Counted from the stretch's first letter, positions 55,907 to 62,151 are shown. The stretch: 64,000 nt of DNA from an uncultured Chlamydiae bacterium (GCA_963754655.1 CAVWGN010000001.1:32001-96000); one strand, 5' to 3'. Numbers and translations: made by a program. Notes: generated by a model from the letters alone, not told the origin.

Positions 55907-56093
55907 AAGAGGCCGCCTCCCTTGCGCAACTGATAAAGCAAAAAATTAATCCAAATAACTGTTTTAATCAAGAATGATTTATCGTATCCGTTCACGAGAT
56001 AAGGCGTCAAATCAATAGAATCGAGGTCCCCCTCCGAGGAACAATCAGGATTTCTCGTGAACCCACAGCTGCGCTTGCGCTTAGGCTCTGGGC

Positions 56094-57939
56094 TGGGATG
56101 AGAAAACGAGGGCTAAAAACCGATTTTTACACAGCTAAAATCGCTAACGGTTCTGATTCCAATTCATTTGATTCTATAGTAAGTTCAATGACATCTGAAT
56201 TTATTTTGCCCAAACTCAAAACTTCTTTTCGTTTTGCTAAATCCGTTTTGCCAATCCATGTTTCTTCCCATTCCTCCAACATTTCGACTGACACCGTTTC
56301 TAAAGCCTCTTGTACGATATCACAATTATTTTCCCCAACCATTCCTGCAAGACTTAGGATACTTTTAGTTATACTAGATGTCGCTTTGGTTCTCTCTACT
56401 ATTATTTTCTGTCTTCCTATCAAAGACTCTATTCCTTCGCTGCTTCCCACTAACACCTGTCCCTTGGATAGCACTCTACCTTCCTGTTTCAAAAAATAAA
56501 AAATCTCTTTTGCCAAATGTAGTGCTTCTGGTTTCAAACTTCTAAAGTGAAGTCTTGCTTTAAGAAAAAAAGTCGCATAGCTTCGTCTATGAAGACCTTC
56601 AGTTCTTACTAAATGCCTTGCCAAACGAATGATTTCTATCATCTGAGCATATTTTTCAATGACTTCTTCGAAATCGACTATCCAACCAGCTTTATCTTTT
56701 AATCTATTTATATCTAAATGGGGAATCGTCTCTTGCATTTGAAGAAGGTTTAAAATATCTTGTAGCCAATCAATTAAAATATCAGCATTCATGAATCGCG
56801 CTTTTTCTCTTTGTTTGGGAGGGCTCAAAAAAGCCTCTGGACTCTGTTTTGTCTTTTGTTTTGTATCTGTAATCAATTGAATTATGTGTTTCCAAGTATC
56901 ATCTTTTTCCAGTTCCTTTTTTAATAGAATTGCTAGTTTATGGACCACATCATAGGTGTTTATTGTTTTTTCATGGTTTTGGCAATATAGTCTTACACCT
57001 TTATTTACATCACTGCCATGATCTGCCACTATCTGCAGAAATGGGCCAATTTTTTCCGATATTTCTTCTAAAACATGCGCAACTTTTTCACCAGTTGATG
57101 AATTCATGGGTTGTAGCGCCAGTGGTTGGAAATCTTCATGATGAATATCAAAGCTGCCCCTTTTTTCAAACTTACTTTGTAATGTACTTAATTGAACTCC
57201 AAGAACTATTAAGCACTTTTGGTAACCAGCTTGAACTTTAAAATCAACAAGGATAATCCAATCTGAAGCCTTTTTCTTAGCCTTTATAAGCTTGTAAAGC
57301 CCATATCGTAAAAACCACAATTCGACGCTTTTCCATGAAGGCTGGAAATTGAAATATTTAAATATTGGAATGTTACAACTCTGCATGGAGATGAAAATTC
57401 GCTGAATCGCTCTAAATGCTATTGCAGCTAATGCAAGTGAAATCACAAAAAATATAAATAATATAGGATATTGATGTCGAGCGACCCTTCGATTGTTGCT
57501 AATTTCTTGCTCAATTATTGCACAAGCTTTTTTTTTAATTCATCAATTTGCTTGTCTTTGATTTTACTTTTCTCTTCTACCTCTTCTAATCTCGACTGAA
57601 GGCATTTTATCTGTTTGTTTAATGCCAAGATATTATCTTGTTCCTTTTGTAGCCTTTCTCCTAATCGTTTCTTATCAGTCATTAGAGCTTGAATCTTAGT
57701 TCTTTTTTCTGCGTTTCTTTGCTTCCATTCATCACGACTTTCCTGGTAATGCTTCACTTGTTTACGTATATCTGAAGGACGCTCATGCTTTTGAGTGCTT
57801 TTTGAATCCATTTTATGCCTCATCTAATTTTGAGCAATCAATTATAAAAGCCTCTTTTTAAAAAGCCAAGCGAATTTAAAATAGGAGGAAAAGCGTTCTA
57901 ATAATTAGTTGTTAAATATTTTTTTGTTTTCTCATCCCA
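56094..57939 (-). mobile_element. Unclassified IS (1846 bp), copy 2, inverted
   Basis: Same TIRs and ORF translations as copy 1; duplication GCTCTGGGC at 56085-56093 and 57940-57948. Confidence 0.9.
56127..57823 (-). CDS. Putative DDE transposase (-1 frameshift), copy 2
   Basis: 102-aa and 439-aa ORFs identical to those of copy 1. Confidence 0.8.
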
Positions 57940-58440
57940 GCTCTGGGCTACAAAAAAAGAATAGCGCAAAGCGCTAAATTTAAGCCTAACAGCACTTTGC
58001 ATGATCACTAAAGTTCTGCAAATTTGCAATTATCTCACCCTTAAATAACCCACCCAATAGCTTGATTGGTTTAATAGCCTGAAAGGCTTAAAATAAAATA
58101 GCCCAGGGCATCGCCCTGGGTTAGGGTGTTCATTTTGTGCAAAAAATGAGCTTTATTTTTCACAATAATTGGCATAGTTGAATTGAAGGTCGCATGTTTA
58201 TGCCGTCCTTTCAGGACTCGATGTCTTTTTGATAGAACCCAAGCCTCCGCTTCGCTGCGACCTGGGGCGTGTCTGAAAAACATTACCAAAAAGTGATATA
58301 AATGATAATACACGCAATTATAACCACTCCTCTATATATTTTTTCTAACTCATAACGGGTGTTTTACTAAAATATTTGACACTTGCAGCCCTTCAGGCTG
58401 CATGACACAACACACTCATAACCAGGGCGTTGCTCTGGTC

Positions 58441-58584
58441 CGGGACTTAACAAAGAACTGTTTTGGGCTTGATGTTTTTCGCGTCATTTTCGGGAAATAT
58501 GCCTCTAAAGCCTGTTACAGGCGGGGTATTGTTAAATTGACTCGACGAATATCAAGCCCAAAAACAGTTCTTTGTTAAGTCCCG
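58441..58584. mobile_element. 144-bp MITE with ~33-bp TIRs
   Basis: cgggacttaacaaagaactgttttgggcttgat / atcaagcccaaaaacagttctttgttaagtcccg; flanks GCTCTGGTC and GCCCTGGTC. Confidence 0.75.
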
Positions 58585-60700: not shown

Positions 60701-60805
60701 ACATGACGGCCCTTCAGGCCTTAACAAGAGATGTTTAAGTCCCTCTTTTATAGCCCCTAAATCATCTTTTTGTTAGGCCTGAAGGGCCGTCATGTTACAG
60801 CCCAG

Positions 60806-61645
60806 GGCGTGTTTGAAAAACATTACCAATGTGTGATATAAATTATAATAAACGCAATTATAACCACTCCTCTAAATATTTTTCCTAACTTATCGTAACG
60901 AGTAGCAATTCGTCTAAAAGTTTTTAGTTTTTGGAAAAAATTCTCCACAACCTTTCTTTTTTTATACAAACGCTTGCTATAGGGAATTTCATCAGTTCTC
61001 TTTGGGTGACTTGGAATGACAGCTCGTTCCTTTCTTTTCATTAAATAGTATCTAATTTCATCTGTATCATAAGCTAGATCTGCTATAACATTTCTTGCTC
61101 GTTTCCCATTTAATAGAGATTTAGCAAATAAATTATCATTTCTATTTCCAGGAGCAATTTTTACTTTTAATGGTTGCCCTTCAGCATTAACTACAACATG
61201 AATTCTTGTTGACCAACCACCTTGTGTCTTTCCAATTCCATTAAATGTTTTTCCTCCAAAACCTCCCATTGCATTTTGATGTACTTTAACACTTGTAGAA
61301 TCAATAATATGTGATTCGTGGGATGCATTTTTTTTTCAAAACACTCCAAATTTTTGACCAAGTTCCATTTAAGGTCCAGTTATGCATTCTTGAATAGATC
61401 GTTTGCCAGTGGCCAAATTCAGGGGGCATATCTCTCCAAGGAGCTCCCGTTCTTATAGACCATAAAATCCCTTCTATTACCAACCGATCATTTTTTCTAG
61501 GTCTTCCCTGTTTACCTGTTTGCGAAGGTAATAATGGACTTAGCTTCTCCCAGTCCTTATCTTTTAAAAACATTCTAGTCATAAACACCTCCTATGGGTC
61601 CCTACAACTATTATTATATCATAAATAATCTTTTTAAAACACGCC
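60806..61645 (-). mobile_element. IS5-family (IS427-like) insertion sequence (~840 bp)
   Basis: GGCGTGTTT / AAACACGCC ends; CCAG duplicated at 60802-60805 and 61646-61649. Confidence 0.88.
60823..61582 (-). CDS. IS5-family transposase, two ORFs joined by -1 frameshift
   Basis: ORF A RTGAPWRDMP..FGHWQT; A9 run at 61336-61328; -1 frame IIDSTSVKVH..ADLAYD..YKKRKVVENFFQKLKTFRRIATRYDK. Confidence 0.9.
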
Positions 61646-62151
61646 CCAGGTCGCAGCGAAGCGGAGGCCTGGGTTCTATCAAAAAGACATCGAGTCCTGA
61701 AAGGACGGCATAAACATGCGACCTTCAATTCAACTATGCCAATTATTGTGAAAAATAAAGCTCATTTTTGCATAAAATGAACACCCTATCCCTCTGGGCT
61801 ATTTATTTGAAGCCTTTCAGGCTCTAAACATTGGATATTTTTGGAAGACACCCTTCTATAACGATTGTAGGGCCATGCCTATTAAATAGTACATGCTCCC
61901 CAATCATTTTAGGGACGGTTAACACAAAATGTCAAATGTTCAGAGCCTTTCAGGCTATTAAACCAATCAAGCTATTGGGTTATTTAAGGATGAAATAATT
62001 TCAAATTGCAAAAATTTAGTGATCATGCAAAGTGCTTTTAGGGATTAAATTTAGCGCTTTGCGCTAGTCTTTTTTTTAGCCCACAGCCCAAGCGCGCAAG
62101 CGCAGCTGTGGGTTTACGAAATCCTGATTGTTCCCCGAAGGAAGCACCTCA

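Follow-up and report, generated by a model that had tools for sequence, protein, structure and literature searches.

A nest of mobile elements upstream of nqrA in an uncultured Chlamydiae bacterium, probably built by precise transposase targets on REPIN-like palindromes

The window considered here is a stretch of 64,000 nucleotides (C1:32001-96000) from the genome of an uncultured Chlamydiae bacterium (GCA_963754655.1, CAVWGN010000001.1), which consists of two contigs of 3,123,268 and 35,310 bp (C1 and C2) with 38.8% GC. The genome is rich in repeats, with 16-mers seen at least twice covering 27.4% of its bases and those seen at least five times covering 14.5%. Upstream of nqrA, between two intact genes, the window holds an intergenic nest of mobile elements of about 6 kb, in which 12 element copies, including insertion sequences (ISs) and miniature inverted-repeat transposable elements (MITEs), are stacked in at least six nested layers. 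An earlier description, here called the sequence-only reading, had placed a nested cluster of at least nine mobile elements at 56023-62150; the cluster is real, lies at those positions, and an inverted-repeat search returns the described architecture. All testable IS junctions carry a matching target duplication. The nest probably arises from nucleotide-precise transposase targets on palindromes that resemble REPINs (doublets of repetitive extragenic palindromic (REP) sequences that form hairpins), and not from a dedicated sink for transposition.

The elements of the nest are given below in window coordinates, with the strand where one was assigned. The names ISx, IS5a, IS481a, pal144, palEl, and shell A/B are labels coined in this analysis; ORF stands for open reading frame.

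55997..56093: outer palindromic shell, left arm, outer part; family similarity from 55997, pairing with the right arm from about 56026
56094..57939, minus strand: ISx copy 2, 1846 bp; terminal inverted repeats TGGGATGAGAAAAC; ORFs 57515-57823 and 56127-57446
57949..58121: outer shell, left arm, inner part; low-copy shell A to about 58040, then abundant shell B
58122..61788: host long MITE, TAGGGTG...CACCCTA, in four pieces (58122-58265, 59136-59137, 60701-60805, and 61650-61788)
58266..59131: IS5-derived composite MITE; IS5-like ends 58266-58368 and 59050-59131; CTGG duplicated at 58262-58265 and 59132-59135
58369..59049: palEl, the palindromic core of the composite MITE; arms 58369-58440 and 58990-59049; 54 family hits
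58441..58584: pal144, a 144-bp palindromic MITE, CGGGACTT...AAGTCCCG; flanking 9-mers GCTCTGGTC and GCCCTGGTC; 73 genome places
58594..58989: intact inner long MITE; flanking 9-mers GCCCTGGTC and GCCCTGGAT; 46 genome places
59138..59434, plus strand: ISx copy 3, a 297-bp one-end remnant directly after the target GCCCTGGGC at 59129-59137
59435..60700, minus strand: IS481a, IS481 family, 1266 bp; ORF 59490-60623; right flank ACATG kept, left flank formed by the interior of ISx
60806..61645, minus strand: IS5a, IS5 family, 840 bp; two frames, 61301-61588 and 60823-61269; CCAG duplicated at 60802-60805 and 61646-61649
61789..62150: outer shell, right arm, which contains the 120-bp insert
61824-61943: 120-bp insert in the right arm, flanked by the 13-bp direct repeat AGCCTTTCAGGCT at 61811-61823 and 61944-61956

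The host long MITE contains, as had been proposed from the sequence, an IS5 derivative, the truncated ISx copy 3, an IS481 element, and an intact IS5, whose boundaries are fixed both by the sequence and by copies elsewhere in the genome. Its arms (144-152 nt at 97%) join 58115-58285 to 61626-61793. Stepwise in-silico excision of the inserts restores the host, also as expected: aligned with the intact inner copy, it shows 383 matches, 7 mismatches, and 6 gap columns. That inner copy itself forms an inverted repeat of 410 bp (58587-58996) with 184-nt arms at 99%. Four of the six gap columns are TGTA, located at the junction between IS481a and ISx copy 3.

The transposase of IS481a scores 262.7 bits on NF033577 (cut-off 224; profile positions 2-284 of 284) and matches the Pfam families rve and LZ_Tnp_IS481, and the terminal inverted repeats of the element extend over 55 nt at 91% (59435-59489 and 60646-60700). 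A duplicated ACATG surrounds two of the three genome copies, the window copy being the one without its left flank; in the other two, the duplication stands in the uninterrupted context ...ctgtaacatg / acatgacgg.... Because this context is intact in the other copies, the window copy has lost its left duplication, TGTA, the far duplication of ISx, and about 1.55 kb of ISx, a loss for which the simplest reading would be a deletion starting at the end of IS481a. As for IS5a, its two frames were scored separately on NF033580 (cut-off 110), the C-terminal frame reaching 129.2 bits and the N-terminal one 103.6; it matches DDE_Tnp_1 and DUF4096 of Pfam, and its six genome copies are 99.9% alike.

ISx copy 2 is flanked by the target duplication GCTCTGGGC (9/9, at 56085-56093 and 57940-57948) and is 100% identical to ISx copy 1 at window 37957-39802, so that its entry is likely to be recent. 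ISx copy 1 is inserted in a GCCCTGGGC 9-mer, adjoining the end of another long MITE. Family scans matched neither of the two ORFs of copy 2 to a Pfam or NCBIfam family, the nearest Atlas clusters for the ISx protein are unnamed, and no relative of this protein appeared in the searched genome-contig collection, which may leave out records of this genome. The target duplication of hAT elements is 8 bp long, and that of ISx is 9 bp. A 306-nt inverted repeat, 99% complementary, ties ISx copy 2 to the remnant of copy 3 (57643-57948 and 59129-59434). The GCCCTGGGC 9-mer that precedes this remnant is formed by the end of the composite MITE (GCC) and by the host (CTGGGC, that is, the duplicated CTGG plus two host bases). 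Since the 9-mer spans the junction between both, and ISx copy 3 lies exactly there, the composite MITE would have entered before ISx copy 3.

Over their first 10 nt (TGGGATGAGA), the ends of ISx coincide with those of a family of palindromic MITEs (e.g., C1:784305-784630), which is composed of the final codons of the Y1 transposase gene at C1:2542103-2542555 and of the hairpin downstream of it; the flanks of this family are inverted rather than direct. One metagenome contig skips 1855 bp (56084 to 57940), corresponding to ISx and its duplication, at a depth of 2 and with a shorter side of 27 letters. This joint may represent an empty-site allele or a paralogous copy of the shell.

The nesting order inside the composite MITE, where the IS5 derivative holds a palindromic element that in turn holds the 144-bp MITE and the second long MITE, agrees with the sequence-only reading and is confirmed by the repeats and by the family copies. 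The ends of the composite share 90.7% (86 nt) and 92.9% (70 nt) identity with the IS5a ends, and no transposase gene lies between them. The family is present at six loci with different flanks, and the three complete copies (3/3) duplicated CTGG, CTAG, and CCAG. A twin at C1:2140664-2141146, 97.1% identical over 483 nt, has the same pal144 and inner long-MITE junctions behind a different flank, which argues that the IS5 ends, palEl, pal144, and the inner long MITE arrived as one piece, and consequently that the nest represents fewer local events than its 12 copies. Both IS-derived MITEs and IS-mediated adjacent deletions are established IS biology. Like the former, the IS5 derivative keeps the IS5a ends and a 4-bp duplication without a transposase, and like the latter, one end of IS481a adjoins foreign interior sequence and has lost its duplication. 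However, unlike usual IS-derived MITEs, the cargo of this one is a three-level nest moved in one piece.

The outer shell had been read as a single palindrome, which is correct in part. Its arms do pair, with 56031-56080 and 62094-62141 matching at 92-96% in the inverted-repeat search and with 220 matches and 23 mismatches once ISx copy 2 is removed, and they do hold ISx copy 2 on the left and the long MITE in the centre. Nevertheless, the shell itself is layered, and its right arm bears a further insert, the 120-bp member of a 25-copy family. The copy-number profile across the shell steps from 3-8 to 55-100 hits; its outermost layer stands alone as a 66-bp minimal hairpin at C1:299k, with partial forms at about eight other places, and its left arm ends in the hairpin GCCCAGGGC-ATC-GCCCTGGGT at 58101-58121. 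At C1:3098897-3100542, a second nest in the same outer shell family contains a 144-bp MITE, a decayed remnant of a Y1 gene, and a long MITE whose centre is doubled. The 9-bp duplication suggested for the outer flanks (aatagaatc / actagaata) is not supported, with only 7 of 9 positions matching and the left 9-mer lying inside a repeat family whose similarity extends out to 55997; the right 9-mer, moreover, overlaps the stop codon of the ORF at 62152-62709.

The ISs of the nest belong to a wider group of elements with the same preference for repeats. Full-length copies of seven IS families were counted as lying in short repeats when at least one flank fell in DNA with a 16-mer depth of at least 5. 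This is the case for ISx (10/10), IS5a (6/6), IS481a (3/3), an IS1182-like element (10/10), and IS256 (8/8), as well as for 17/23 copies of a second IS5 type (IS5b) and 3/11 copies of an IS607 element with TnpB. The enrichment of ISs in palindromes that had been put forward as a test is therefore found, as 37/37 copies of five families lie in a class of DNA that represents 14.5% of the genome, and ISx, IS5a, IS481a, IS1182-like, and IS256 all behave as REP-targeting ISs do, with most or all copies in extragenic palindromic repeats. The long-palindrome family alone occupies 58,286 bases, equivalent to 1.85% of the genome and to 9.8% of the space outside ORFs of at least 100 codons (a space of 18.8% of the genome), and is touched by 25/37 copies of the five families (25/71 of the seven), with P = 7e-35 against the whole genome and P = 4e-17 against the space outside those ORFs.

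Within these repeats, insertion is precise. Five of the six IS5a copies are located at the identical base of the long MITE and the sixth in GCCCAGGGC, while the IS5 derivative of the window occupies the mirror image of the IS5a site. The right flank of IS481a is common to its three copies, and all ten IS1182-like copies are inserted in the loop of a GTCC-TTTCA-GGAC hairpin, with TTC duplicated. A perfect 9-bp duplication surrounds 9/10 copies of ISx, and 10/10 are found at GCCCWGGGC-like sites, of which the genome has 92, compared to about 4 expected from its 38.8% GC; 84 of these 92 are in repeats. ISs also lie close to one another, with six adjacent pairs within 700 bp versus 1.13 expected (P = 0.0016, simulation). 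Copies of IS5a and the IS1182-like element are found 56 bp apart inside one long MITE at C1:3109846-3112205, and IS481a and ISx 41 bp apart at C1:2338851-2342026.

This precision makes it improbable that the nest is a neutral graveyard, in which transposition is random, insertions into genes are purged, and nests survive in dispensable DNA. Such an explanation draws on the fact that surviving copies are all that is seen, and on the untargeted IS607, which abuts long open frames in 6/11 copies, so that insertions into genes are tolerated in some cases and may have been eliminated in others. However, long-MITE-like DNA represents 9.8% of the space outside long ORFs and yet has 25/37 copies (P = 4e-17), and recurrence at the same nucleotide (10/10, 5/6, and 3/3) is not predicted by survival alone.

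The relation of these insertions to genes bears on a second proposal, that the palindromes are a safe harbour evolved by the host and kept because they divert insertions from genes. Stop-free runs of at least 100 codons abut 2/37 targeted copies versus 6/11 of IS607 (Fisher P = 0.0008), as such a harbour would have it, and host co-option has been argued for in the literature on REP-associated tyrosine transposases (RAYTs), in the sections of PMC5581495 drawn on here. On the other side, there is no sign here of selection for such a role. Among the 20 relatives searched, the long MITE is confined to this genome, being not found in 17 and found only as short pieces in the other three, and the 97-99% likeness between its copies is that of a recent selfish burst. 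A host-evolved harbour is thus hardly credible. A 30-nt exact pattern from the end of the long MITE found no match in the searched genome-contig collection, possibly without this genome's records. Of the related claim that the palindromes act as sinks sparing coding DNA, the enrichment and the few contacts with genes stand; nevertheless, the protection of genes is due to the choice of target by each transposase, and there is no sign that the palindromes exist for it. The IS607-type element with the TnpB gene has 11 copies (including C1:944383-946212), mostly in unique DNA, six of them abutting long open frames.

Just as doubtful is the copying of ready-made nests by segmental duplication or gene conversion instead of repeated insertion. 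It is partly true, as the composite IS5 derivative travelled in one piece, the shell context is common to many copies of the long MITE, and a second nest in the same outer shell is found at C1:3098897-3100542. The contents of both nests differ, however, and IS bodies at the same site differ at 0-2 positions versus 14-106 of the 240 columns of their 2 x 120-bp flanks, part of this flank difference stemming from other inserts nearby. To judge by these differences, same-site IS copies are most probably separate insertions.

Least credible of all is a misjoined assembly of this repeat-rich region, for although the single sequencing run that holds this DNA does so as short contigs breaking at repeats and C1:1-10002 repeats part of contig C2, the IS junction pairs carry their own duplications (9/9, 4/4, and 4/4) and excision restores the host at 383/396, neither of which is expected from chimeric joins. 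The start of C1 (1-10002) repeats the end of C2 (25940-35310), either because the contigs overlap in the assembly or because they share this segment.

Some observations do weigh against precise targeting of palindromes as the origin of the nest. IS607, with 3/11 copies in short repeats, does not behave as a REP-targeting IS, and IS5b, with 17/23, does so only in part. Surviving copies are a sample biased by selection against harmful insertions, and no orthologous empty site was found in the relatives. In addition, among the 60 pieces aligned from one soil-metagenome run, which contains 64% of the sampled words as short contigs only, no read or contig spans the arrangement, which consequently rests on the internal consistency of the duplications.

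The genes on both sides of the nest are intact, as had been noted. nqrA holds no internal stops, aligns with relatives over positions 1-463, and is present in 13/20 of them, and the 185-aa ORF is open. The nqrA start codon has the beginning of the cluster about 90-115 bp upstream of it. In the three closest genomes, the 12 kb upstream of nqrA contain neither the 185-aa nor the 399-aa neighbour, and the matches to the 185-aa protein are only paralog-like, with 27-42% identity.

The palindromes themselves seem to be linked to Y1 transposase genes. The core of the inner long MITE comprises two inverted modules, at 58710-58764 (+) and 58819-58873 (-), that resemble Acido-Lenti-1 (RF01687). Eleven listed copies of this motif in the same genome score 37.1-38.7 bits, and relatives reach 48.9 bits. 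PF01797, the Y1 transposase family, has nine matches over the cut-off in the genome, seven of them near full length, and the relatives have 1-4 matches each. One of these genes, at C1:395750-396241, lies between inverted stretches of the long-MITE core, located within 1 and 13 bp of its ends and matching at 91% on one side (108 nt) and 82% on the other (62 nt), and the 16-mer depth reaches 279 in its flanks versus 3 inside the gene. Another hairpin, GTAGTCTGAAAGACTAC, brackets both of the near-identical Y1 genes located at 2542k and 2544k and is the founder of a different palindrome family. The four Y1 types compared share 26-49% identity and are not repeated themselves, except for one duplicated type (2542k, 2544k), and their proteins pass the IS200 model NF033573 with 64.4-66.3 bits (cut-off 55).

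A similar arrangement is found in two relatives from other genera, G010 and G007, where a homologous Y1 gene lies between inverted Acido-Lenti-1 hits of 45 and 41.6 bits, compared to a gathering score of 37:

L042 1404-2054 (G010): Y1 gene bracketed by an Acido-Lenti-1 pair
L046 1399-2106 (G007): Y1 gene bracketed by an Acido-Lenti-1 pair

G007 holds 107 Acido-Lenti-1 hits, mostly as inverted doublets about 144 bp apart. Among 21 genomes, eight have both the motif and the Y1 homolog, one only the motif, two only the gene, and ten neither (one-sided Fisher P = 0.0017, for genomes that are related and so not independent). Because the hairpin modules of the long MITE also bracket single-copy Y1 genes, the palindromes behave like REPINs; from this sequence evidence, they look like REPINs and Acido-Lenti-1 looks like a REP unit, not a small RNA (sRNA) gene. 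The Y1 proteins may mobilise these palindromes.

Several results speak against this view of the palindromes. The window modules reach 36.4 bits on Acido-Lenti-1, just below the gathering score of 37, and one module arm has no folding advantage over shuffled sequence (z = -0.74). On the model of REP-associated tyrosine transposases, NF047646, the Y1 proteins score 22.6-25.3 bits, far from the cut-off of 80. Among 45 long-MITE copies, many of which share the shell context, so that flank counts are not independent, 13 have perfectly inverted flanking 9-mers and one has perfectly direct ones, with no clean duplications. In both window copies, the flanks resemble a 9-bp half of a GCCCAGGGC-loop-GCCCTGGGC hairpin that has been duplicated, with agreement at 7-8/9 positions. 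The palindromes may either insert without duplication, as Y1 enzymes do, or become symmetrical afterwards.

These systems can be compared to several published ones, as described in the sections of the sources drawn on here. Tobes and Pareja (2006; PMC1525189) presented REP-type palindromes as hot spots for ISs of five families (IS3, IS110, IS4, IS256, and IS5), covering ISPpu9, ISPpu10, ISPa11, ISPsy8, ISRm22, ISRm19, IS1397, ISKpn1, and IS621, and including two different ISs that share one insertion point within a REP. Like these REP-targeting ISs, the elements of this genome insert in a highly selective manner into GC-rich extragenic palindromes. Unlike those cases, however, five families (IS5, IS481, IS1182-like, IS256, and ISx) are found in a single genome, each with its own position, and most of them on a single 400-bp element, nested in at least six layers. 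IS481 and IS1182-like elements are not among the IS families named in those sections of PMC1525189. The nest is an unusually rich case of an already published habit, rather than a new kind of system; what is added here is the convergence of several families on the same element, a composite that travelled in one piece and gave rise to a new target, and the link of the palindromes to Y1 genes and to an orphan Rfam motif.

With regard to the REPIN-RAYT system (Bertels and Rainey 2011, PMC3116915; Bertels et al. 2017, PMC5581495), the likeness is that single-copy Y1 genes are bracketed by inverted hairpin repeats that are abundant as extragenic inverted doublets. Unlike in that system, the Y1 proteins fail the RAYT model and pass the IS200 one, and the doublet lies inside a lineage-specific shell, facing opposite to the arrangement around the gene. 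The term Chlamydia has 0 occurrences in the main text of PMC5581495. The current classification of Acido-Lenti-1 (Rfam RF01687; Weinberg et al. 2010, PMC2864571) is that of an sRNA gene, and its two-hairpin consensus matches the core of the long MITE; contrary to this classification, it behaves here as a DNA repeat that brackets a transposase gene. In the portion of the literature covered, no function for Acido-Lenti-1 appears under the name of the motif, and a 2026 preprint describes its function as unknown.

The precise targeting of REPIN-like palindromes would build the nest as follows. The gap upstream of nqrA would first have been filled by a stack of non-coding palindromic repeats, the commonest of which is a long MITE of about 400 bp with a core formed by a pair of inverted hairpin modules. 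Several unrelated transposases would each recognise a short site on these hairpins: ISx would cut GCCCWGGGC-like 9-mers, IS5a and its MITE derivative CCAG, CTGG, or CTAG, and IS481a a site at ACATG, beside a GGCC hairpin, whereas the IS1182-like element, elsewhere in the genome, would land in the loop of the GTCC-TTTCA-GGAC hairpin. As the palindromes carry the short site of each transposase, insertions would pile up there, and because every insertion leaves two copies of its target and new targets arise at some junctions, a locus that has been hit would become easier to hit again. In the intergenic nested transposons of maize, later elements enter earlier ones and the stack grows, usually explained by tolerance in non-genic DNA. 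The layered intergenic growth is similar here; unlike in maize, the stack would follow from sequence-specific targets.

The most plausible order of events begins with the shells, followed by the entry of the host long MITE into the central hairpin of shell B. Then, the ready-made composite IS5-MITE would have entered the left arm and IS5a the mirror site in the right arm, both at the same stage and without a place relative to each other. Next, ISx copy 3 would have been inserted into the 9-mer formed at the junction of the IS5-MITE, and finally IS481a, followed by an IS481-adjacent deletion that would have taken most of ISx copy 3. The entry of ISx copy 2 into shell A and the 120-bp insert of the right arm, which is undated, have no fixed place in this series.

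A more far-reaching proposal is offered tentatively. According to it, Acido-Lenti-1 might be the REP unit, and not an sRNA, of a RAYT-like lineage of Y1 transposases in Chlamydiae, and its shell-wrapped REPINs might serve in this genome as landing pads for at least five unrelated transposases. Nests would then be self-reinforcing, as insertions duplicate or create 9-mer targets, and the palindromic families would grow through insertions into the middle of hairpins that leave no target duplication, accounting for flanks that are inverted instead of direct.

If this proposal is true, an abundant orphan Rfam motif would gain a testable identity as the REP unit of a Y1 transposase. For annotation, the composite MITE is a caution that tallies of nested elements overstate the number of local events, since composites travel as units. 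On a single 400-bp DNA, several compact transposases have targets defined to the nucleotide, and these enzymes could be compared at the bench. The nest would represent a natural case in which target-site specificity alone confines most IS activity to less than 2% of a repeat-rich genome and builds deep nests.

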